A stretch of 64,000 nucleotides of DNA. Source: a virus. Lineage: Duplodnaviria > Caudoviricetes. This document shows, one piece after another, positions 1 to 58,838 of the stretch (the stretch's first letter is position 1; the number at the start of each line of letters is the position of its first letter). The notes below the pieces were generated by a model. The model was not told where the DNA came from and searched no databases. It saw nothing but the letters and a program-made list of their open reading frames with translations. A program made the translations under genes and the position numbers. The stretch covers positions 314 to 64,313 of IMG/VR virus record IMGVR_UViG_3300035516_000188, one strand, 5' to 3'.

Positions 1-246
1 CTTGGTCGTGGTGGTGGGTTACTTGCCCTTTGTGGGCTTGGCTTGCGGTCGGATTACTTGTATTGATTGTGATGTTTATCTGTATTGGAGTGCAGACTGT
101 ATTACACAAGCTCACGGACATTTGGTAACTTGCCAGCGCATGAAACACGAAGCGAGGGACGTTCATTCGCCCCTCGCTTTTCTTACTCACTCGCTTGCGC
201 TCGCTTGCTTGCCGTGCCCGTGTCACTCGCTTACCTCGCCCTCGCG

Positions 247-768
247 TCACTCATTCTTGCAGTAGAAATACTCCCACGTCTTAGTCGGCGAAGTCTTTCC
301 GTCGCCATCGTCCCAATCCTCGTCAAAGAAGTAGAACGCAATGGCAGCTTTGATGATGGTCGTGTCGTCATTGATAACACCGCAAAGGTCTGCGTGATAG
401 CCGTTCAGAGCAACGTACACGTCCCAATCGGTCACGCCTGATGGTAGGCTTGCACCTTTGAAAAACTCTTTAAGCACAGAGCTTGTAGCCTCTTTCGTCT
501 GGTCTTGCGTCCAATACGCACCTTTGTGTTTCACACCGTCTTTATCCGTCCACGCCATCTGCGAAACGTCCCATTCGGCAAACTCTTTGTTGTAATGGCA
601 GTCGGTCATGATGCCTACTTGCTTGCGGAGGAATTTCCAATACATATCCTCATGCTCGTCTTTGAGTTCTTCGAGCATATCCGATACGTTTGCGATGGAG
701 AGCCACATTCGCTTTTCATCAAACTTCCCAGCTGCCTTTGCTTGTTTTACGATTTCTTGATAGTTCAT
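247..768 (-). CDS. hypothetical protein, last gene of the Cys-rich operon
   Basis: 173-aa ORF, ATG with A/C-rich leader; Trp/Tyr/Asp-rich C-terminus (YFFDEDWDD...KTWEY). Confidence 0.75.
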   Translation of the reverse strand: MNYQEIVKQAKAAGKFDEKRMWLSIANVSDMLEELKDEHEDMYWKFLRKQVGIMTDCHYNKEFAEWDVSQMAWTDKDGVKHKGAYWTQDQTKEATSSVLKEFFKGASLPSGVTDWDVYVALNGYHADLCGVINDDTTIIKAAIAFYFFDEDWDDGDGKTSPTKTWEYFYCKNE

Positions 769-826
769 AGTTTAGTAGTTTAGTACGTTAGTAACGTAGT
801 ATTGTAGTAAAGTAGTACGCGCCACG

Positions 827-1012
827 TCAGCACGTCGGGCAATGCCCATTAAATCTTGGTATCGGCTTGTAGTTGCCTACCATAGGAGCGGAGGGTTGCC
901 ATTCGTCCGGCTGTGGTTCGTTTGCGGTCGGCTGTGGTTCGCTTGCGTCCGGCTGCACCTCGCTCACTTTCTTTGCGCCCTCGCTTGCGCCCTCGCGTTT
1001 AACCTTTCCCAT
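827..1012 (-). CDS. small protein with EPQP repeats and terminal CxxC
   Basis: 61 aa ending YKPIPRFNGHCPTC; overlaps the 3' end of the upstream membrane ORF. Confidence 0.55.
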   Translation of the reverse strand: MGKVKREGASEGAKKVSEVQPDASEPQPTANEPQPDEWQPSAPMVGNYKPIPRFNGHCPTC

Positions 1013-1266
1013 AGCACATCATATAACTTGTTTAACTGAACGAGCAGCAAGCCTACCCAATTACTTAGATAGGCTGCAATGATTGACAACGTTACCGCAG
1101 TGATAGCGTCCGCACCTGATATTACCATAGCCGCCATGCAACCCCAAAAGCACGCGCACTTATAACATACAGCTATCTTTGATGCCACCTCGCAGATAGC
1201 CTCAAACAAGCCGAGATGCACACCGATGCAGACGGCTATCACTACGGAGAACATTGTTAGCCACAT
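964..1266 (-). CDS. small membrane protein with CYKCAC motif
   Basis: 100 aa, about 3 hydrophobic segments. Confidence 0.65.
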   Translation of the reverse strand: MWLTMFSVVIAVCIGVHLGLFEAICEVASKIAVCYKCACFWGCMAAMVISGADAITAVTLSIIAAYLSNWVGLLLVQLNKLYDVLWERLNARAQARAQRK

Positions 1267-1342
1267 ACTCGCTCACTTACGTTCGTTTGCTCATTTACTC
1301 ACGTTTGCTTGTTCGCTTACTCACGTTTTCACTCGCTTGCGT

Positions 1343-1801
1343 TTACCCCTGCGCAGCCGCTGCCGCGCTTGACACCGTTAATGCCAGCGGCGTCTCACTG
1401 ACAAATGCACGCGAGCAGGTCTGACAGCCGGACACAGCCACATCGTTGATTGTTACACCCTGCGTTACGGAAACCGTTACGGGTGTAGTCGTTGTGTAGA
1501 ACGGAATAGTGAAATTCGTAGACAACGGCTGTTGCTTGGTGCAGCAACAATCACCATTACACGGAACATAGCTGATAATACCCTCTACATGAACAGTCGC
1601 AACGTACTGCGACGTGCCTACCTTTGAAAAGCTAAGCACACTGAAACGCGGCGCAAACACCGGAGTGTTGTCGGCACACGTCTTAAAGCACAAACGCTGC
1701 GAGATGTTACAGAGAACGTAATACGGGCTTGCCGTGCTACCTGCCGCCAACGTCGCGTTGATTATCGGCGGCTGAATTTGATTAGAACAATTACAAGACA
1801 T
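1343..1801 (-). CDS. Cys-rich, predicted beta-rich protein
   Basis: 152 aa starting MSCNCS; also contains CNGDCCC and CQTC. Confidence 0.75.
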   Translation of the reverse strand: MSCNCSNQIQPPIINATLAAGSTASPYYVLCNISQRLCFKTCADNTPVFAPRFSVLSFSKVGTSQYVATVHVEGIISYVPCNGDCCCTKQQPLSTNFTIPFYTTTTPVTVSVTQGVTINDVAVSGCQTCSRAFVSETPLALTVSSAAAAAQG

Positions 1802-1826
1802 ATTCTTACTTGTTTTTTGAGGACTA

Positions 1827-2075
1827 TTACTTGTTATGGTCGCCGCCCTCGTTGGCTACCGGATATAGTGCTGATTCGACTGACGCAATCTTCGCGCTCG
1901 CGTCGTCTATCTTGGCGCTGGTCTCATCTATCTTTGCGGCTGCGTCGTCTATCTTCGCTCCGAGCGCGTCAATCTTTTCGCTGACTTCTTGGACTAACTT
2001 GTAGAGTTCGCAGACGTTCTGATTGGTCGTACCTACGCCCTCTGCAATCACTTGAAAAATATTCTTTTGCTCCAT
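1827..2075 (-). CDS. heptad-repeat coiled-coil protein
   Basis: KID-based 7-aa repeats (KIDALGA KIDDAAA KIDETSA KIDDASA). Confidence 0.7.
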   Translation of the reverse strand: MEQKNIFQVIAEGVGTTNQNVCELYKLVQEVSEKIDALGAKIDDAAAKIDETSAKIDDASAKIASVESALYPVANEGGDHNK

Positions 2076-2131
2076 ACTCTCTTGCGTTCGTTTCGCTCGT
2101 TTACTCGCTTTTTTCTTTTCGTTGCAAACGG

Positions 2132-2320
2132 CTATTTCAGATAGCTGTTCACAATCGGATTATCCTTTATCTTATCCAAAAGCGCAGCCATCTTCTTAGC
2201 CGTGATAGCGATACCTTTGCTCCGCTTGTAGTCCACGAAGTCAAAGAACGCTTGCTCGAAGTCGGCAATCTCTTGCTCGCTATCTGCGTAGATTGATACT
2301 GTTGCTTTGGTAGATTTCAT
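2132..2320 (-). CDS. hypothetical protein
   Basis: 62-aa ORF, ATG start, co-oriented in the operon. Confidence 0.65.
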   Translation of the reverse strand: MKSTKATVSIYADSEQEIADFEQAFFDFVDYKRSKGIAITAKKMAALLDKIKDNPIVNSYLK

Positions 2321-2377
2321 ACGCTATGCGTTTTAGTGCAACTTTATTGCGTTATTTTCATTTTATGTGCGTCACAT

Positions 2378-2773
2378 TCACTTTATCAACGGAGGAATTT
2401 CCGCAGCCGAGCCTCCTGCCGCACTCGCCGTTTCGCTTGCTACCTCGCTCGCGCTTTCCACAGTCTCCGCCACACTCGTCGCTCCACCTGCCCCAGCTCT
2501 AATCTGCTGAATAAAGCTGTAAGCGTCAATAAGGTCATTCTTGTTTTCTTTGATCCACCCAAAGAACTGACCTGCGCCTTGCTTGATTTGCTCGTAGATG
2601 GACGGATTAGGAATATCGAAATCGGGCATAGTCTCCACTCCGTCTGCCAAGAAATTATATAACCGCTCCGCTTTTTCAATGTCTCTATCACAAGCCATAA
2701 GGCAAGATAGTTTGAGCGATATTTTTGAGCTTGGGTTGATCATCTCGATTTTTATCTTTGGTTTGCCAAACAT
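2378..2773 (-). CDS. hypothetical protein
   Basis: 131 aa with Ala/Ser/Glu low-complexity tail. Confidence 0.7.
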   Translation of the reverse strand: MFGKPKIKIEMINPSSKISLKLSCLMACDRDIEKAERLYNFLADGVETMPDFDIPNPSIYEQIKQGAGQFFGWIKENKNDLIDAYSFIQQIRAGAGGATSVAETVESASEVASETASAAGGSAAEIPPLIK

Positions 2774-2902
2774 GGGGAGTTACTTAGGGGTTTGAAAGTG
2801 GAGAGAAGTTGGGGCGACTTGCGCCACCCCAACCGAGGTGCTTGCGCTGCGCTTGCTCGCTTACGTCGTGTTTGCGTCTGCGTGAGCTTGCTCGCGTAGG
2901 CG

Positions 2903-3412
2903 TTAGCCGTTGCAGCAACCGCAGTTCTGCTCGCTCACACGTTGGACGCGGAGAGCGCAGTTCTGCTGAATTACGCTTGAAAGCGGATTGGTGTTGCTAC
3001 CATTGAGCAATGCCAAAGCCTCTGCCGTAGCTAAAGCCTGCGACTGAGCGTTAGACGTACCGCCCGTTGCCGTAGCTCCGGTCAGTGAGCGCAAAGTCTG
3101 TGCCACGTCGATGTTGATGCTATCGGCGCGCTGGTTGTCGGCAACAACACGGTTAGCCAAAAGCGCAACGAGGTCAGAATTGGCCTTTGCCTGTGCGTTC
3201 ATCGTGTTCTGGTTGCCCATAGCACGAGCCTTAGACGCAGAATTGACCGCCCAAGCGCCAACAAGAGCCGTCAGCAATGCAGCACCACCGAGACCAGCTG
3301 CAAGAGCAACGCCAGTAATGGCCGTGCTGCTTGTATGTCTGCGGTGACAATACCCATCGCGTTCGTCGTCTCGGCGAAGAGCCATAACGTCAGCTATTGT
3401 CAAATTCTCCAT
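2903..3412 (-). CDS. protein with Gly/Ala hydrophobic segment and C-terminal Cys cluster
   Basis: Start reassigned to ATG 3412 (MENLTIADV) because a -7 promoter element lies at 3453-3460 inside the longer ORF call; ends QNCGCCNG. Confidence 0.7.
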   Translation of the reverse strand: MENLTIADVMALRRDDERDGYCHRRHTSSTAITGVALAAGLGGAALLTALVGAWAVNSASKARAMGNQNTMNAQAKANSDLVALLANRVVADNQRADSINIDVAQTLRSLTGATATGGTSNAQSQALATAEALALLNGSNTNPLSSVIQQNCALRVQRVSEQNCGCCNG

Positions 3413-3452
3413 GATATTAGGTATTAGGTTGCCGTCAATATTAACGGTACGG

Positions 3453-3460
3453 CAAAGGTA
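3453..3460 (-). promoter_or_regulatory. Bacteroidota -7 promoter element for the Cys-rich operon
   Basis: TACCTTTG matches TAnnTTTG; no -33 TTTG at the canonical spacing. Confidence 0.55.
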
Positions 3461-3521
3461 TGCCGTGTTTTCTTTTGGAAAAATTCTGTTGCAAATTTTT
3501 GCTAACTGATTAATACACAAT

Positions 3522-3554
3522 AAAAAAGCGGTTATGCTCACGCACCGCCGCTTT
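3522..3554 (-). terminator. intrinsic terminator
   Basis: AAAGCGG...CCGCTTT stem followed by a U-run on the minus strand. Confidence 0.6.
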
Positions 3555-3634
3555 ACCAATAACCTTTAAATACACATAGAAATACATCCTTTTACCATGA
3601 GTGAAAATGAAAAACCTCTATTTTTAAAACAACA

Positions 3635-3934
3635 CTAAAAATTACCTCTGTTAATCCACTTTGTTGGGCATACACCCAAGAACCAACGTAGATTGTGATA
3701 TACTCTCCGCTTAGGTTTGTCGCCGTAGTTCCGGCTACATACGCTGCGAACGTTTGTTTCGCTTTGCCCAAAGAAGTCCGATATATCTTTGGTCGTTGCG
3801 TCTACCTCCAGGCTTTCGCCCGTCATCTTGTAAAAATCTCGTATCTCGCTCGCTGTACACTTTCCCGTCTCTAATTGAAGCTTAACGAAGTCGCAGATGG
3901 CTATCAACTGCTTCTTCATGGAATCCGTTTCCAT
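3635..3934 (-). CDS. small cytoplasmic protein, possible regulator
   Basis: Likely start ATG 3934 (METDSMKKQL), overlapping the end of the upstream membrane ORF; DNA-binding role is inference. Confidence 0.55.
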   Translation of the reverse strand: METDSMKKQLIAICDFVKLQLETGKCTASEIRDFYKMTGESLEVDATTKDISDFFGQSETNVRSVCSRNYGDKPKRRVYHNLRWFLGVCPTKWINRGNF

Positions 3935-4356
3935 AGGAAGAGCTTTATTGCGTTTATGATTGAAATGATGATTATCAATGATATGCAAGAATAATCCAAG
4001 AACGCTACGTTGGTGCCAAACTCGTGAAAGTTGTCGATTAAGATGATCACCAACGGAAGCATCGGCAAACAGCACTGAATTTTGTGCCAAATGCAGAAAT
4101 GGAGCAACCGGGATAAAACAAGCAAGGATGCGCAGTACATCGGAGAGACGTAGAGCAACAAATCCAAAATACTCTGCGTTTCGTCATCAACAAAGAAAAA
4201 CGCGATGTTTCAAACAAGAACAAAGAACGTGTTTATGAATGGCAATAGTTTGACGAACAGTGTTGTGTCCTTCAATACCTTGGAGACGTATGCAAATGCG
4301 TCAGACGTATTTTGCGTACCGTCACCAACCTTTCTTTCTTGGTTGTCCTTTTGCAT
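3916..4356 (-). pseudogene. multi-pass membrane protein gene interrupted by one in-frame TGA
   Basis: ATG 4356 (MQKDNQ...LLPFINTFFVLV) is in frame with ORF 3916-4167; the only stop is TGA at 4212-4210; hydrophobic on both sides. Confidence 0.6.
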
Positions 4357-5090: not shown

Positions 5091-6698
5091 TTATAATTGG
5101 ATAGGCTCGCTAATATTCACAAACACGTTGGCTGAGCCTTTTGGTGTTGGAACGAGATTTAAGCTAACATTGGTAGCGTCGTGATGCTCGCTAATGCTGT
5201 TACCAATGATAATATTATTTTCATTGCGTATCATTTCCGGTGAAGGTGAAGTGAAGCCAACTGTTCCATTTTCCAAATAAGCGACCATTTGAATGCCAGA
5301 GTATTCAGCGTTATCTTTCACCGTTTGAGTGATGATAATCTTTTTAATCTCTTCTACGGACGATGAAATTACTTTCTCTTCTTCTACCGAGTAAGATATA
5401 GTGTCAATATCTACTAAGATTACAACTACTGATAGATTGAAATAAGCGAGTTTTCTGTTCCATTTGTATGTTATAGTATCGCCAAGCTGCGATGAGCCAT
5501 TATACTCAAAAAACAAGCCTAAATACACCGGGCTACCATCTACATCATCGTATGATATAATTGGCATGAACTCATTATTGTTCGCCGTATCTGCGTTGTT
5601 GAACGTTGGCATGTAATCGCCAACCCAATTTTTTATATCGAACAGAGAGATTCTTAGTCTGTGTTCGTCGATATTCGTTCCTGGCTTTTCAAGATTTTCC
5701 ATCTCATCAGTTGGAACCAACGTAAGATAGCCGCTATTGAGGAATGTTATGGTGGTGTTAACAAAATATCCGATGTCGTTCTGTTGTGTCAGTTCTTCGG
5801 CTTTAAGAGTAATGTTTCTCGTTACAGCTTTGTAGTAATCTGTATCGAAACTATTAGTCAGTGTAGAGGGCACAGTGTCACCGAAGAGTATCTTGTACTC
5901 TTCGGCTTCTTTGTAGATGCTCACCTTAAAAATTCCACCCTCCAAAACAGCAATGTTGTCTGTTTGACCTTGGTTGTTTGTAGGCTGAACATCGAAATTA
6001 TCAATCTTGGTTTGAGAAACGAAAGCCACAAGATAGAATGACGCATTGTTCACATCTTCCGGAAAAGCAATGCTTGAAAAAGCTGCACTGAGGATTTTTA
6101 TGTCTGTCATTCCGTTTTGCAAGCTGCCAATCTTAGATGATGACATCCTGCACCATTGGCACCACGTGCTTGTATTGTTCGCCCACTCGTCAGCAGCGTT
6201 GTTTCGATAAAGCGCGAGACCAAAATAGCAGTTAGAAAGTGCTGTGTCAAACTGTTTACCCGACGTGCTGTGTAGAAAAATATCCGACGTGTCAATCTGC
6301 CCATCTCGTTTCGGATTAAGACGGAGCGTAAAGTCATACGTCGTTCCACTCACAGCTTTGTACTGAGTGTTGATGCCGATAATCCCGTTGAACGGAGATT
6401 TTGCATCATGCGCATAACCGTCGAAGTCACTAAGGCGAAAAATCTTAGTTGGCTTTATGTATTGCCACGAGACAGCAACCGTGGGGTCGGTGTTGAACAT
6501 CTCTTGAATAGGAACGTTCAGTCCGTAGAAACACTTTTGTTGTATATCATCATCAGTGAGTTGCGAATATTTAGTAAACTCATACGGCTTCCTCTTGCTC
6601 CACTTATTTATATTTTCGCTCTTAGCCAAATCTGCTAAATTCGTATGTGACTCCTTTAAAACTGATTTTACGGAGCGGATTGTTGCTTTCGTGCTCAT
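5091..6698 (-). CDS. putative tail fibre / receptor-binding accessory protein
   Basis: 535 aa, beta-rich; 4-nt overlap with the upstream fibre gene. Confidence 0.6.
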   Translation of the reverse strand: MSTKATIRSVKSVLKESHTNLADLAKSENINKWSKRKPYEFTKYSQLTDDDIQQKCFYGLNVPIQEMFNTDPTVAVSWQYIKPTKIFRLSDFDGYAHDAKSPFNGIIGINTQYKAVSGTTYDFTLRLNPKRDGQIDTSDIFLHSTSGKQFDTALSNCYFGLALYRNNAADEWANNTSTWCQWCRMSSSKIGSLQNGMTDIKILSAAFSSIAFPEDVNNASFYLVAFVSQTKIDNFDVQPTNNQGQTDNIAVLEGGIFKVSIYKEAEEYKILFGDTVPSTLTNSFDTDYYKAVTRNITLKAEELTQQNDIGYFVNTTITFLNSGYLTLVPTDEMENLEKPGTNIDEHRLRISLFDIKNWVGDYMPTFNNADTANNNEFMPIISYDDVDGSPVYLGLFFEYNGSSQLGDTITYKWNRKLAYFNLSVVVILVDIDTISYSVEEEKVISSSVEEIKKIIITQTVKDNAEYSGIQMVAYLENGTVGFTSPSPEMIRNENNIIIGNSISEHHDATNVSLNLVPTPKGSANVFVNISEPIQL

Positions 6699-9600
6699 AA
6701 CTTCTGTGAACTTAAACCAGCTTTGTCGAGCAACGTGTTAATTCTGTCAATCACGTCGCTAAACGATTTATCATTGATAACAGCACCACCTGGGGCTTCC
6801 ACCTCAAACGTATTTGTCTTGATGCCAAAATTATCCGATTTCAGCATAATGTCTCCAGCTTCGAGAGAAAAACCACCGAGAGCGGTAATTGACACCGCGT
6901 TTGCAGAATGTAAGGCGAGGTTCGATGCTGAGAATATCCTCAGTGCTTCGTTCCGAACATACTCTATCGCGGCATCTTCCTTGGTGTAGAAAAACAGCTG
7001 CGTCGATAGATAATCCTCTTCGATGATTCCGATGGATTTAACCTCCGCCGACTCCTTGTATAGTCCGTCGTAGTTGCCAAGGGCACAAACATCTCCAGAT
7101 GCCACGAGGGTCGCGCCGTCGATTTTCAGCACGCTGTTTGTGTCATCCCAATAGATGCTTGCACTCCCAAGAGTGAGCTTATCCAACTTAGTATTTCCGC
7201 CGCGGATTGACCCGCCAATCTTCACGTCGTAGTTATCGTCAGCGAGGGCAAAGATGCCAAGATGACCGCCCTGCTCAGTACCGTTTGGGTTCCACCGAGT
7301 AAGTACCATGTTTCCTTTGATGTTGGCTAACTGATAACCGTAGTAGTCTGGGTTGAAGATTTTGCCGCCGCTTATTTTTCGGTTAAAGCTGATAACACCA
7401 CCATAATCAGACGAGTTAGCAAAGAGCTGCATATTGCCACCTATGATAAGCGTCGATGAGCTATCGTCCGTCTTGTCATAGTCCATCGTGCCAATCAACA
7501 GCGTCTTGGCATTGCCGTCGAGCGTCGCTTTTATCGTAGAAGGCAGAGGCAAAGAAATGCTTTTACTTCCGTCAAAGTCCACGTAAGCTCCGTAGTTTGT
7601 GCCGTCTCCGACACGCAGTTGCACACTGCTGGTAAACTTTGTTGCCGTGTCAGCATTACCTTTAAGCGTGGCTTTAATCGTCGAAGGTAGAGATATGCTA
7701 ATATCCGCGCTGCCATTAAACGACGTGGACGCTCCGTAATTTGTACCGTCGCCAATTTTTATGTTTCGTGCAGTTTCAAGAACTTTTGCCGAGTAAGCAC
7801 CTCCCGTGATGTTCACCGACAACTTTGTGTCGCACGCGGTTATTTCTCCGTTGTTTAGATATACCGGTAGGTCTGATGCACCAATCGTCGTCGTTGAAGA
7901 TACTATCTTGTTAGCGAAGTCAGCTGTCGCGTTAATTCTATCGCCGCAAGCCGTAGGTACACCATTTGATAAGTATATCGGTTTTGTTGAACCTCCAACA
8001 TCCGATGTGCCAATCTTCGTGACTGAGCCGTTGATTAGGTCGCTTAGCTTTGCATAGGTCTTATTTGCTGTTTCGCTTTTGAGATAATATTCTAACGTGC
8101 TATTTAATCCGTCTTGGTCAACGTAGTTGTCTCGAATATCAGCAATGTCGTTGTCAATACTCTCGAGCTTTGTATTGATTTCGCTCTTCGTGTAATAGCT
8201 TGCGATTTCTGTTTTCGATACAAAGTTTTCGGATACATAAGCTCGTGAAGCGACTGTGTTGAAGTCCACGTCGCCGCCCGAGAAGCTAACCGTCTGGTTA
8301 ACCCACTTAGATAGTCCGCTGTCCCAAACAAGCACCTGCCCATCATCTACGTCCGATACCGAAACGTCGAGAAGGTCAGAGAGATTGCTGGCTCCTCCTC
8401 CGCCATCTTCCGAGCTTTCCGTGTTTAAGGCACAGACATCACCCTCGGCGACCAATCCGCTGCCGCTTATTTTCAGCACTCCGTTTGTGCTATCAAACGA
8501 GAGTGTTGCTTTGCCGATGGTTATCTTAGACAGTGTTAGTTCTTCGGTTTGTAAGTTCTTGGCATACAACAAAGCATTGATATGTATCGGGTATTGCGGT
8601 GACGAGGTAAAAATTCCGACGTTGCCGCCCTGCTCCGTACCGTTCGGGTTCCACCGAGTAAGAATGAGGTTCCCCTTTAAATCCGCTAACTGATAACCGT
8701 AATACTTAGAGTTGTATAAAGCTCCATTGTTGATGTTTCTGTTGAAGGAAATGACACCAGTGTTCTCGTCGTTGTCGGAGAATAGCTGAAACCCCTTCCC
8801 GATTGTTAGCGTCGATGAAGAGTTTCCTTTGTTGTCGTTGATTTCAAGATTATCAAAGGGCACGTTGGGGTGCATCTTTGATATGCTGCCTTTTTCGTAA
8901 ATTGGGGTGATTGCCGCAAGCGTTCCCCAATTTGTGCTATCATTACTCGTCGATGTAACGCTGAAATTCGCGCCGTTAGCCACGATGGTACCGTCAGTGT
9001 TGAACTGTATCGCACCCTTTGCAGCATAGCCGGAGCCATTGCGTCTTACGAGCCACGTTGCACCTTCTCCCGTTTCTGAGTTATACTCTGCACGCGAGCC
9101 GCCTGCCCAAAAGACAATATCAGAGTCTGCACTCGCGCCCGACATACCCGCCGAGATGTTCGTTGAGTTACTATCTACGACGATAATCTGATTGGCTTGA
9201 CCAAACCTAAAAATAGCGTTTGATGCAAATAGAGTAGAGAAATACGTCGGGTTTTGGACGGAAATGGCATCCCAATAGTTATTCCAATTACCTTCGACTG
9301 CCGGATTAGGCTTCGTGTCTACCGACGACACGTGTGTTTTCTTGCAGAGATAAAGCGTGAAATCGCCGTTTGTTTCCGTGATGGAAACGCGGTCAATTCT
9401 TGGTGTAAGGTCGATGCCGCTTGTGTCTGATATTCCTAAATTTTGTATATCGGCGATAATCTGGCTCTTTGTTTTGCCATAGTCGTTACGATATAGTGTT
9501 TTATCATCATACTCTGTTTGGTACGATAAACATCCTTGCAATCCGTTTGTGCCGTTTTCGCCTTGTTTTGTCATCGCGACGGTGTTAGACACTACACCGT

Positions 9601-20150: not shown

Positions 20151-20513
20151 TTAATACCCATTCTGCGGGTCGCGGTTTTGGCACTTAGGTACTACGCATC
20201 TGTATTTTTGTAAGTCAAGCTGCAACGAGCCTTTTTCTTCCGTAAGTTGCAGGATTTTTGCGTTTTTCTCGTCGGTAATCTGCAATATCTGCGCGTTCTT
20301 GTCTCTAAGTACATTGGTCTGTTCTGCAAAACGCTCCTCTTTTTCTTTGAGTTGCTGCTGCAAAAACTCAATCTGTTCTTTGAGATTGTGAAACTCGTCT
20401 GTGTCGGCTTGCGCCTCTTTTATCCTGCCGTCTTGTTTTCGGTAAACCAAGAACTTCACAAATTCAAGTCCTCCGAGCGTCCCCAAAACGGTAATTAACA
20501 TCTCCCAACTCAT
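20151..20513 (-). CDS. holin- or i-spanin-like membrane protein
   Basis: Single N-terminal TM, long coiled coil, C-terminal CxxxxC. Confidence 0.5.
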   Translation of the reverse strand: MSWEMLITVLGTLGGLEFVKFLVYRKQDGRIKEAQADTDEFHNLKEQIEFLQQQLKEKEERFAEQTNVLRDKNAQILQITDEKNAKILQLTEEKGSLQLDLQKYRCVVPKCQNRDPQNGY

Positions 20514-20995
20514 ACCAACTCGCTCTCATATCTTGTAAATTCTACATTGTCATTACTGATAGCCGAGATGCTGTTGTCGCCAAAGATGTAAATCGGAACG
20601 CGAATAGGCTTAAAATACTCCTTTTCACAGCCGATAGACATTGTGCTGCCATTTGCAAAATAAAGCATTGGGATTAGAGCTTTTTCAGCATTAAGAGCCA
20701 CATTGATGTGCCCTGTACAGTTGTGGAAAACGTAAGCCTGCAAGTCATTAAGTAACTCTCCGTGAAAATGCTTGTCAATGAAAATGCCAAACGAGGCAAG
20801 TTCTTCTTTGTCAAAGTTTTCACGTAAGAATCTAAGTGACGGATAATTACGTTCAAGCGACCAATCTATTGTCTGAACGTAATACATAATAGCACGCTCA
20901 ACGTCCGGAAGTGTCTTAATCACTTCGATACCTTCTGCGCAAGCGTGATGCAAGCGCGCATCTCGCAAAAGTTTTTCTTTGAGTGCTTGTTCCAT
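20510..20995 (-). CDS. hypothetical protein
   Basis: Start reassigned to ATG 20995 (MEQALKEK), just downstream of the promoter at 21017-21048. Confidence 0.65.
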   Translation of the reverse strand: MEQALKEKLLRDARLHHACAEGIEVIKTLPDVERAIMYYVQTIDWSLERNYPSLRFLRENFDKEELASFGIFIDKHFHGELLNDLQAYVFHNCTGHINVALNAEKALIPMLYFANGSTMSIGCEKEYFKPIRVPIYIFGDNSISAISNDNVEFTRYESELV

Positions 20996-21016
20996 CGTAT
21001 TAGTTTTAAGTTGCCA

Positions 21017-21048
21017 CAAAAATAGAGAATATTTAACACCATAGCAAA
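21017..21048 (-). promoter_or_regulatory. Bacteroidota promoter
   Basis: TTTG, 20 nt spacer, TATTTTTG. Confidence 0.65.
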
Positions 21049-21061
21049 TTTTTATATAAAA

Positions 21062-21094
21062 AAGCGCGTGATGGGTTTGTGCCGTCACGCGCTT
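21062..21094 (-). terminator. intrinsic terminator after the endolysin/spanin genes
   Basis: AAGCGCGTGA / TCACGCGCTT stem followed by T-rich tract on the minus strand. Confidence 0.6.
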
Positions 21095-21128
21095 GATCGC
21101 TTAGGGTTGCGCACTCGCTTGCGTTGCG

Positions 21129-21569
21129 CTATCTCCTGCGCTTAATTATCCAAACGACGATATAACATATCACAACAAGAACAATCGCCACTGCGCAGAA
21201 TATTCCAAAGTGATATAACGACTTCTGAAACTTCGATAGCTCCTTCTGAATTATTATCGGAACATCCACTGAATCACGCTTTTCTATAAATACGCTATCC
21301 GTGCGCAGCTTGTCCCGGTAAATCGTTCTGTATTTCTCGATAAACACCGTGTCTTGCTTTTCTTTTACCGATATGCTGTCACGAATGTAGACGCTATCCG
21401 TGTTGTAAACAAGCCTATCTCGATATTCAACTTTCGTCGTCTCGACGGGGACTTCTTTAATAACTCTGCATGATGCCGTAAGCACCATGCAGAGAATACA
21501 ACAACAAAAAAGAGAAAATAAAGTGCGCCGTGTGCTTCCAGCATGACTGCGCAAAGAAAAAACATCCAT
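21129..21569 (-). CDS. candidate unimolecular spanin (lipoprotein with C-terminal TM)
   Basis: N-terminal basic plus hydrophobic signal ending LTASC; beta-repeat (DSV/DTV) middle; C-terminal TM followed by KRRR. Confidence 0.6.
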   Translation of the reverse strand: MDVFSLRSHAGSTRRTLFSLFCCCILCMVLTASCRVIKEVPVETTKVEYRDRLVYNTDSVYIRDSISVKEKQDTVFIEKYRTIYRDKLRTDSVFIEKRDSVDVPIIIQKELSKFQKSLYHFGIFCAVAIVLVVICYIVVWIIKRRR

Positions 21570-21571
21570 GA

Positions 21572-22021
21572 TTAGTCGTATTTTCCAAAGTAAAAATCAG
21601 CTTCAAACTTCCTGCGCCGTGCAAGCCCTGCAACGACACGACCACAAGATTTATCCCATCGCAAGAACTCATTGCGAAGCTCCGGATTGTTAGGGTTTTT
21701 AAGCAGAATATAAAGCAGCGAAGAGCCTTTGAGAGCAAACAGACCGACGTTGAAAGAGAACGATACAAGCGCGTCAAACTGACTCTGTGTTATTTTCACA
21801 GACTTTGTAAGGTTCGCTACACCAGTTTCAAATCTACCAAGGTCGGAATTGAATAACTCGATAGCTTTTTGAGCCGTGATTTTCTGATCAACGCTGACAT
21901 CGCTCCCGGTATGCCCATAACCTATTGTTAAGACACCCGCTGCGTCTTTGTAAGCTGTAAGTTTGCAGCCCTCAAACTGACGCATATACATCTTCATTTT
22001 TTCGCTTGTTTTCATAAGCAT
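21572..22021 (-). CDS. endolysin, GH24 phage lysozyme
   Basis: FEGCKLTAYKDAAGVLTIGYGHT catalytic E-x8-D-x5-T motif; QFDALVSFSFNVG; GLARRRKFEA. Confidence 0.9.
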   Translation of the reverse strand: MLMKTSEKMKMYMRQFEGCKLTAYKDAAGVLTIGYGHTGSDVSVDQKITAQKAIELFNSDLGRFETGVANLTKSVKITQSQFDALVSFSFNVGLFALKGSSLLYILLKNPNNPELRNEFLRWDKSCGRVVAGLARRRKFEADFYFGKYD

Positions 22022-58088: not shown

Positions 58089-58838
58089 ATGAATAAGTAT
58101 ATTTACAACCGCGTATCTACTGAAAAACAAGACTACGCACAGCAGATGCAATGCATCAACGAATATTTTGCGCGCATGGGCATTAACCCTACGAGTGTTG
58201 CCGAAGTAGTTACAGAGAAAGTGTCTGGTACGAAGAACCACACTGAACGCAAGCTAAACGACCTCATGAAAAAGTGCGCTAAGGGCGATATTATATATTT
58301 CTCTGAACTGTCACGATTAGGACGCAACATGGTGGACTTAAATAACATCGTAAACGACCTATGTAAGTTAGGTGTGACACTAATTCAATGCAAGGATGGC
58401 ACTGTAATAGAAAATGACTCTATTGCTGGCAAAGCACTATTATTTGCCTTTGGTTTAGCCGCAGAAATCGAAGTGAAGAACTTGCAGCAACGAACTCAGA
58501 TGGGCATGCAGGTGCGAAAAGAGATAGTGCAGAAAAATGGCTACTGGGTCAGCAAGACTGGCAACGTCCGCACACACTTTGGACGTGAAAAAGGCTGCGA
58601 TTTGGGAGATGCAAGACTGGCAGCGGCAGAGGCGGCGCACGCATCAAAGCAACGTTGGCAGCAAACAAGCCCTGCTTATCAGTTGGTTAAATCCATGAGA
58701 GCTGCCGGAGTGAAGATAGATGACATCTACACGGAGCTTGAAAAGAAAGACCCGGAAGTTTACTGTACACGCAGGGGCGGCAAGATTAGCCGCGCGATGC
58801 TCCAATATTGGTGTGCAGAGATTTCCAAGGCTGTTTAA
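58089..58838 (+). CDS. small serine recombinase (resolvase/invertase family)
   Basis: YNRVSTEKQ catalytic motif; EKVSGT; SELSRLGRN. Confidence 0.9.
   Translation: MNKYIYNRVSTEKQDYAQQMQCINEYFARMGINPTSVAEVVTEKVSGTKNHTERKLNDLMKKCAKGDIIYFSELSRLGRNMVDLNNIVNDLCKLGVTLIQCKDGTVIENDSIAGKALLFAFGLAAEIEVKNLQQRTQMGMQVRKEIVQKNGYWVSKTGNVRTHFGREKGCDLGDARLAAAEAAHASKQRWQQTSPAYQLVKSMRAAGVKIDDIYTELEKKDPEVYCTRRGGKISRAMLQYWCAEISKAV

Follow-up and report, generated by a model that had tools for sequence, protein, structure and literature searches.

The window analysed here is a stretch of 64,000 nucleotides (nt) that spans nearly the whole of a linear 64.3-kilobase (kb) phage record (IMG/VR IMGVR_UViG_3300035516_000188, 89% complete). 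This phage carries terminase, helicase and primase genes, a diversity-generating retroelement with its tail target, and a gene for a tail-length protein of 2611 amino acids (aa). Eight co-oriented genes (g1 to g8) are found near one end of the record, downstream of the last large genes in the tail region; they occupy positions 247-3412 of the minus strand, between a -7 promoter box and a strong hairpin (Table 1). An earlier note on this DNA had described them as a self-contained operon, and our analysis bears this out: all eight open reading frames (ORFs) lie on the minus strand where the note had placed them, together with the promoter box and a hairpin on either side. Each ORF has protein-level relatives in other loci by tblastn and, therefore, these are genes rather than chance ORFs. 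The eight genes form one operon, whose order is conserved in many gut Bacteroidales phages.

Table 1. Features of the operon and its flanks (window positions; the last row refers to other loci, designated by L numbers)
Feature	Position	Strand	Description
g8	247-768	-	173 aa, acidic/aromatic, helical; Pfam DUF7841
g7	827-1012	-	61 aa; first 49 nt overlap with the end of g6 (different frame); ends in CPTC
g6	964-1266	-	100 aa, three-helix membrane protein; CxxC (CYKC) at residues 34-37; basic C-terminal tail
g5	1343-1801	-	152 aa, Cys-rich, all-beta; best conserved gene of the module
g4	1827-2075	-	82 aa, coiled coil with five KID-type heptads
g3	2132-2320	-	62 aa, small soluble protein; homologues in 13 loci
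g2	2378-2773	-	131 aa, soluble; conserved CxxxC near the N-terminus
g1	2903-3412	-	169 aa from ATG; short N-terminus, 30-residue uncharged helix rich in Gly/Ala/Ser/Thr (67%), Ala/Asn/Gln-rich helical domain, C-terminal CGCCNG
-7 promoter box (predicted)	3453-3460	-	TACCTTTG; Bacteroides-type, consensus TAnnTTTG; 41 nt before the g1 ATG
Upstream terminator-like hairpin	3512-3562	-	-14.6 kcal/mol, z -1.9 (RNA fold), followed by U6
Operon-closing strong hairpin	150-179	-	12-pair stem; -24 kcal/mol, z -4.95
Two overlapping upstream genes	3635-4167	-	multi-helix small membrane protein (3916-4167) and 99-aa helix-turn-helix (HTH)-like protein (3635-3934)
Conserved leader in other loci	L005:617-706, L007:702-791, L008:491-580, L011:158-247, L013:8505-8594, L014:7308-7397, L017:743-832, L019:2581-2670		

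The promoter and terminator calls are predictions, made by matching a consensus or a structure. The -7 box, claimed in the earlier note as the promoter of the operon, is the only minus-strand TAnnTTTG within the cluster region, and 13 of 18 loci have such a box at 22-80 nt before their g1 homologue. This recurrence across loci is better evidence for a promoter than the single match in the window. A terminator had also been proposed at 3522-3554. The hairpin and its run of six U are indeed present, but its predicted stability is modest. It is a plausible, if modest, terminator candidate that would part the operon from the upstream HTH-like and membrane-protein genes and from the tail genes. To it we add the stronger hairpin at the far end of the operon, which may be a bidirectional terminator shared with a convergent ORF. 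The latter encodes a two-helix small membrane protein (MPNKTLY…HKLTDIW) on the plus strand (about 70-440 of L001), ends at window position 128 and faces the hairpin. A candidate ninth gene past g8 (MNVPRF...) was rejected, as the terminator hairpin fits this segment better.

Conservation was followed through g5, whose relatives form 371 clusters at 90% identity (E <= 0.001) and 52 representatives at 50%. The 20 loci fetched through this protein comprise three viral contigs and seventeen contigs from metagenome-assembled genomes (MAGs) or genomes, almost all of Bacteroidales. In 20 of 20, g5 stands among the module genes in the same order. Hence, the recurrence in gut Bacteroidales phages that the earlier note had mentioned is real, and the outcome that it had named as fatal, homologues scattered with no gene order, did not occur. 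Homologues of g1 were found in 14 loci, and g2 gave tblastn matches in 14 loci (E 1e-10 to 1e-38). Identity of g5 goes down to 47% among related loci, and within the same locus it reaches about 62%, against 30-44% for its neighbours. Two arrangements were found. Variant A, that of the window, runs HTH, g1, g2, g3, g4, g5, g6, g7, g8. Variant B (L004, L015 and L021) runs HTH, F10 (a different glycine-zipper protein), F13 (a different small protein), g5, g6, g7, F14. This last protein is a divergent DUF7841 member, above the Pfam cut-off with 46.3 bits and matched to g8 by hhalign at 91%. Another locus, L020, has g5 and lacks g6. In L014 two ORFs interrupt the module, one of 290 aa (6096-6968, opposite strand) that separates the HTH gene from g1 and one of 148 aa (8711-9157) that separates g3 from g4; the operon therefore tolerates insertions. 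Four module contigs (L006, L007, L011 and L017) had been binned in MAGs named Mycobacteriaceae, Azospirillum, Dialister and Acutalibacteraceae, labels that are almost certainly binning artefacts of Bacteroidales phage contigs. Three long proteins weakly matched by g5 (P0165, P0171 and P0172) were rejected as repeat or low-complexity artefacts.

In prophages, the module is the last block before an integrase or tRNA gene; this was confirmed with Pfam in L013 and L004, and called by similarity or a tRNA match in L015, L019, L011 and L007. L013 belongs to genome G001, and in a sample of 401 genomes of the same order as G001, DUF7841 reached the Pfam cut-off only once. Hence, the module is chiefly a trait of free or rarely integrated phages and is not common prophage cargo. 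Its carriers differ in virion type, as they include crAss-like podoviruses, the window phage with its 2611-aa tail-length protein, and a prophage with a P22-like portal. Altogether, the operon is a mobile, separately promoted module. Unlike in several relatives, no tyrosine integrase was seen adjoining the module in the window. A 249-aa ORF at 58089-58838 (plus strand) starts with the YxRVSTxxQ motif of small serine recombinases and could encode an invertase or an integrase. Close relatives of the window phage, sought through its 535-aa and 1049-aa tail proteins in order to judge whether the module is dispensable, were not found.

According to the earlier note, none of the eight products looks like a known virion, lysis or replication protein. 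Searches of Pfam, PHROGs, PADLOC and NCBIfam indeed found nothing named except DUF7841, and no characterised relative emerged; g8, however, is no orphan, since it belongs to this family (PF25223; E 1.2e-11, 45.3 bits against a cut-off of 25.2). Neither g2 nor g3 matched any family in these collections, and g4 gave only generic coiled-coil noise below the cut-offs of Pfam, PADLOC and NCBIfam. Apart from this noise, PADLOC found no component of known anti-phage defence among the eight products. Sequence searches of the PDB with g1, g2, g5 and g8 returned nothing below E 0.04. The AlphaFold2 model of g8 is helical and confident (predicted local distance difference test, pLDDT, 90.5), and it has no fold match by Foldseek (E > 1) or VIA-align (Z <= 4.2). 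Two leads on g8 were discarded: a protease reading, raised by CE-clan proteases that recur in the weak rows, was rejected as the sole candidate cysteine is not conserved, and weak endolysin rows with a template modelling (TM) score of about 0.2 were dismissed as meaningless.

The model of g5 is an eight-strand beta-sandwich (pLDDT 90.3). Its best VIA-align row is an Hsp20/CS sandwich (Z 5.4, root-mean-square deviation 3.8 A over 85 residues), among many Hsp20/CS rows at Z 4-5, below the level that the tool treats as meaningful. Pfam gave no HSP20 or CS match, and Foldseek found nothing at E <= 0.001 in the PDB or BFVD. Thus, neither g5 nor g8 was assigned by structure to an ordinary tail chaperone or lysis family, and the second outcome that the earlier note had set against itself did not occur either. 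Seven cysteines of g5 are invariant among close members, and two of them (C38 and C126) across the whole family; those of the N-terminus are not conserved. In all, five products (g1, g2, g5, g6 and g7) carry conserved cysteine pairs or clusters, and the alignments of g5, g6, g7 and the g1-type proteins confirm that the cysteine motifs singled out in the earlier note are conserved features and not noise.

The topologies of g1 and g6 are predictions from charge counts only. We examined 21 g1-type proteins. Each has an uncharged hydrophobic segment of 19-30 residues, with 52-67% Gly/Ala/Ser/Thr in 20 of the 21, and one to four cysteines in its last 15 residues. Around this helix, Lys/Arg number 43 on the C-side and 31 on the N-side, where acidic residues are more numerous. 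By the positive-inside rule, this bias predicts that the long domain of g1 lies in the cytoplasm. Signal peptides and lipoboxes are missing from all eight products. The cysteines are thus predicted to be in the reducing cytoplasm, which in the living cell favours metal bridging over disulfide cross-linking, the two options that the earlier note had given. Its alternative of a membrane-inserting role fared better and is plausible, with g1 and g6 as predicted membrane proteins. The g6 protein and its 10 homologues have 94-108 aa, three hydrophobic segments and a tail of net charge +2 to +7; the 11 full-length homologues without exception have a CxxC within residues 30-37. Wherever g7 was called, it starts inside the end of g6 in another frame. 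Five aligned g7 ORFs have a variable N-terminus and a conserved C-terminus, YKPIPRFxxGCxxC.

The g8 gene connects the operon with a wider block. DUF7841 homologues occur in the cultured Bacteroides phage BF1-TP2 and in many crAss-like phages, and hhalign matches g8 to these crAss and BF1-TP2 proteins with a probability of 99.9%. In BF1-TP2, cr3_1 and p-crAssphage (Carjivirus communis) the DUF7841 gene ends a short block. These blocks, gp44 plus gp40-gp36 in BF1-TP2, gp11-gp15 in cr3_1 and gp61-gp57/gp56 in p-crAssphage, are the closest to the window operon and are uncharacterised. Their first gene (BF1-TP2 gp40, cr3_1 gp12, p-crAssphage gp61) encodes a protein of g1-like build, in which a short N-terminus and a Gly-rich hydrophobic helix precede a coiled coil, with cysteines placed at the C-terminus or close to it. 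As in the window, small helical proteins are encoded between this gene and the DUF7841 gene; an HTH gene lies upstream in cr3_1 and BF1-TP2, and p-crAssphage gp57 is a three-helix membrane protein like g6. The differences are also clear. The p-crAssphage block includes a small HExxH protein (gp56), whereas the window operon has no HExxH protease; g5, g6 and g7 have no counterpart among the ORFs of the BF1-TP2 and cr3_1 blocks that were examined, and tblastn of g5, g1 and g6 against 50,697 GenBank phage records gave no match. The likeness between g1 and p-crAssphage gp61 is one of build only (hhalign 21% with the window-type g1 family, and 73% over 45 residues with the variant-B family). Homology to the crAss block is firm for DUF7841 only, and the g1-type link is one of architecture and of hhalign matches over short stretches. 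No PHROGs match was obtained for the crAss and BF1-TP2 counterpart proteins, no literature on DUF7841 or BF1-TP2 was found, and fused, longer forms of DUF7841 were sought and not found. A prophage-like locus (G094/L034) has a lysozyme-like, a unimolecular-spanin-like and an HTH-like ORF, all three called by motif only, followed by the block in the order Gly/Cys-rich g1-like protein, beta-rich protein, coiled coil, YGER-repeat protein, DUF7841 and HExxH protein. From these comparisons, we read the window operon as an expanded version of a more widespread, uncharacterised block that crAss-like phages have as well, with g5-g6-g7 as an added sub-module.

The two overlapping genes upstream of the operon are likely its dedicated regulator. 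The same pair of membrane-protein and HTH-like genes precedes the module in L003 (3798-4477), and in most other loci where that flank was covered its place is taken by a Bac_DnaA_C-type HTH gene. In both the window and L003, the multi-helix membrane protein of the pair has a C(I/T)WH(K/R) motif. In cr3_1 gp11 (3532-4233 of L023), membrane and HTH parts are found in one 233-aa protein, with similarity at the motif level only. The upstream proteins could constitute a membrane-tethered regulator, possibly joined by frameshifting. BF1-TP2 has two further genes, for a histidine-kinase-like ATPase and a DUF4325/STAS-like protein (gp43-gp42; 3459-4714 of L022), inserted after its Bac_DnaA_C HTH gene and before its g1-like gene. 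The element GACGGATAA, conserved upstream of the -7 box, resembled a DnaA box and was rejected as such because it encodes the last codons (Asp-Gly-stop) of the HTH gene. Ten loci share a conserved leader of about 70 nt, located between the -7 box and the start of g1, with two predicted hairpins, an invariant CCAAT…AAGAGG core and a few compensatory changes; it matched no Rfam family. The window's own leader has a short hairpin only and lacks this element. The spacers between the operon genes (180-246, 900-1012, 1267-1342, 2076-2131 and 2774-2902, minus strand) contain 5-14% T and are rich in AAGCGAG/CAAGC-type repeats, and the N-terminal half of g7 is encoded by sequence of this T-poor type. 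In L002 and L003, the same genes are tightly packed and have no repeat spacers.

We tentatively favour the possibility that the operon products assemble at the inner membrane, on its cytoplasmic face, into a complex with a part in the control of lysis or egress. A device of this type is the known kind that best fits the separate regulator and host-type promoter, the two small inner-membrane proteins, the signal-less partners and the frequent place beside lysis genes. The spread of the module across virion types makes a core virion part unlikely, and we count it for lysis control because lysis cassettes behave likewise. As to position, an endolysin gene lies a few genes from the module in L015 (Peptidase_M15_3), in L014 (Amidase_2), in BF1-TP2 (gp47) and, as called by motif only, in G094/L034, and a GH108 gene lies directly downstream in L020. 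Moreover, crAss001, which lacks the block, has its lysis cassette (gp27-30) after the tail fibres, the place held in p-crAssphage by the gp61-57 block. In the proposed complex, g1 would be held in the inner membrane by its glycine-zipper helix, similar to a signal-anchor-release (SAR) domain, with its coiled-coil domain and terminal cysteines in the cytoplasm. The g6 protein would be a holin-like element of class I build, N-out/C-in, with a basic tail and its CxxC loop facing the cytoplasm. Made in step with g6, g7 would pair its terminal CxxC with that of g6 in the fashion of a zinc clasp. The beta-sandwich g5 and the DUF7841 protein g8 would be soluble partners, the soluble proteins acting as regulators and g1 as the second membrane component with its SAR-like helix. 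Late in infection, such a complex might control membrane permeabilisation or egress as a timing device of the holin/antiholin type, accessory to the lysozyme and spanin genes located elsewhere in the phage.

Several known systems can be compared with this arrangement. With its approximately 100 aa, three helices, predicted N-out/C-in topology and basic cytoplasmic tail, g6 is similar to the class I holin S105 of lambda and has the build of that class (three transmembrane helices, N-out/C-in, charged C-terminal tail), the topology being predicted from charge. However, neither sequence nor profile comparison linked it to a holin family of Pfam, PHROGs or NCBIfam, and its ESM Atlas neighbours are unnamed. 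A class I holin gene is also expected beside an endolysin gene, and in the window the lysozyme gene is about 17 kb away. The operon as a whole is reminiscent of multi-gene lysis cassettes such as Y-K-lysA-lysB-lysC of P2, as it places a second membrane protein and small soluble partners beside g6 and, in relatives, often lies a few genes from an endolysin; it differs from them in that the endolysin and spanin-like genes of the window phage are distant. We know of no holin with a conserved CxxC loop and a CxxC partner peptide.

The structure of g1 also invites comparison with spanins and SAR proteins. In 2013, Berry et al. reportedly found that the cysteines of lambda Rz form intermolecular disulfides. 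This i-spanin is a membrane-anchored coiled coil with cysteines that form such disulfides, one of them next to the C-terminus (PMC5295617). Like Rz, g1 combines a single N-terminal helix with a helical or coiled-coil domain, and it has cysteines at its extreme C-terminus. An i-spanin is N-in/C-out with a periplasmic coiled coil, and for g1 the charge bias points the other way and predicts a cytoplasmic domain. The Rz/Rz1 pair further includes an outer-membrane lipoprotein, a partner with no equivalent among the eight products: none of the eight has a signal sequence and lipobox, and the only lipobox-type protein is the one encoded at 21129-21569. The window phage has a unimolecular-spanin-like gene of its own outside the operon. 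SAR domains are known from P1 Lyz, pinholin S21 and T4 RI, and their composition, rich in Gly/Ala/Ser/Thr, lets the helices leave the bilayer. The g1-type helices resemble them in composition, but g1 is predicted C-in, whereas known SAR proteins expose the C-terminal domain to the periplasm. For the cysteines, a precedent is given by intermolecular zinc sites to which each chain contributes one cysteine pair, such as the CD4/CD8-Lck zinc clasp and the Rad50 zinc hook. Similarly, g6 in a membrane-adjacent loop and g7 at its C-terminus each offer one conserved pair, and the coiled coil of g1 ends in a cysteine cluster; the analogy is one of mechanism, without homology to the window proteins.

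A number of observations weigh against a role in lysis control. Pfam, PHROGs and NCBIfam gave no holin, antiholin or spanin match for any of the products. The window phage has a lysis cassette at 20151-22021 (minus strand), separate from the operon and about 17 kb from it, that comprises a Phage_lysozyme endolysin (21572-22021, E 1.2e-38), a 146-aa protein (21129-21569) that is built like a unimolecular spanin, combining a lipoprotein-type signal (…LTASC) with a membrane helix at its C-terminus, and a 120-aa transmembrane and coiled-coil protein ending in CxxxxC (20151-20513). This last protein resembles crAss001 gp28, which is annotated 'lysis regulatory protein/holin'. Likewise, the lysozyme of p-crAssphage (gp80) is encoded with membrane proteins 25 kb from its block. 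Nearness to endolysins could reflect a shared place at the end of the late region, and in L020, where the endolysin gene adjoins the module, g6 is missing. In addition, a timing device would leave the twofold higher conservation of g5 unexplained, and topology, metal binding and protein contacts are predictions. We hold our confidence in lysis control low because of the missing family match, the full lysis cassettes elsewhere in two carriers, and the conservation of g5.

A different explanation, which we consider unlikely, is that the module encodes a virion-associated accessory. A g1-like coiled-coil fibre or membrane-penetrating ejection protein would be stapled by its terminal cysteines, with cross-links forming after exit from the reducing cell, and the small proteins would serve as cap, chaperones or partners. 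The p-crAssphage block is located among tail genes, and its gp61 is annotated 'putative tail protein'. Small HExxH-type proteases often mature virion proteins, and one follows the block in p-crAssphage and in G094. The sandwich of g5 is similar to many decoration domains, and the tail of crAss001 is held by disulfides (PMC10172136). However, three membrane helices in g6 and a strongly hydrophobic helix in g1 would be odd in parts of a tailed-phage particle, and the module is found in podovirus-like and long-tailed phages alike. Moreover, a host-type promoter and a regulator of its own serve the window operon, which a terminator-like hairpin separates from the tail genes. The block is missing from crAss001, a phage with virion parts that are otherwise conserved among crassviruses.

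The mosaic distribution across unrelated phages would also fit a superinfection exclusion or lysogenic-conversion module (a 'moron'), in which membrane proteins made from a host-type promoter alter the envelope and block the entry of other phages. We regard this as rather improbable too. A moron is expected to have its own promoter and terminator, and the operon has both by prediction, with the -7 box (13 of 18 loci) and hairpins on both sides; in prophages, the module lies at the very end, by an integrase or tRNA gene, the classic place for cargo, and g1 and g6 resemble known exclusion proteins in being small inner-membrane proteins. Against these points, crAss-like phages, considered to be virulent, also have the core of g1-like and DUF7841 proteins within their late operon, and eight genes in conserved order are many for exclusion. 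There was no PADLOC match, and the scarcity of DUF7841 among the sampled genomes of the order of G001 speaks against common cargo.

Less probable still, the products may represent new phage machinery, a scaffold at the inner membrane, on its cytoplasmic side, in which cysteine pairs from five small proteins are bridged by metal, its core shared with crAss-like phages and its role other than classical lysis. Such a scaffold could be a membrane platform for assembly, or it could serve a regulated, non-explosive release of the type suspected for carrier-state crAss infections. Finally, the self-assembling shell akin to Cys-rich spore-coat or exosporium proteins (CotY/ExsY, SPOCS) that the earlier note had suggested is very improbable: g5 has the size and the N-terminal MSCNC look that we take to be those of ExsY-type proteins, and one ESM Atlas neighbour cluster includes a SipL SPOCS protein (score 0.91, a lead of a sort that the tool marks as often due to chance), but neither Pfam CotY/CotZ (PF10612) nor SPOCS (PF12673) was matched by g5 (E <= 0.1) or by 29 family members (E <= 10), no such fold appeared among the Foldseek or VIA rows for g5, its N-terminal cysteines are not conserved, and the hosts are non-sporulating Bacteroidales.

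The preferred reading, an inner-membrane complex for lysis control, bears on a little-understood step in the life of these phages. Both the timing and the execution of cell exit in Bacteroides phages are poorly understood, and crAss-like phages are noted for delayed lysis. The g5 family alone amounts to hundreds of sequence clusters in gut metagenomes, and many crAss-like phages, p-crAssphage among them, have the core of the module, a glycine-zipper/coiled-coil protein plus DUF7841. The crAss-like phages are the dominant viruses of the human gut, and no gene of the module has a known role. As a cultured carrier exists (Bacteroides phage BF1-TP2 on B. fragilis), along with integrated prophages, the question is open to ordinary genetics. 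If the cysteine pairs are indeed intermolecular metal sites that join a membrane protein to soluble partners, they would represent a new assembly principle for phage proteins.

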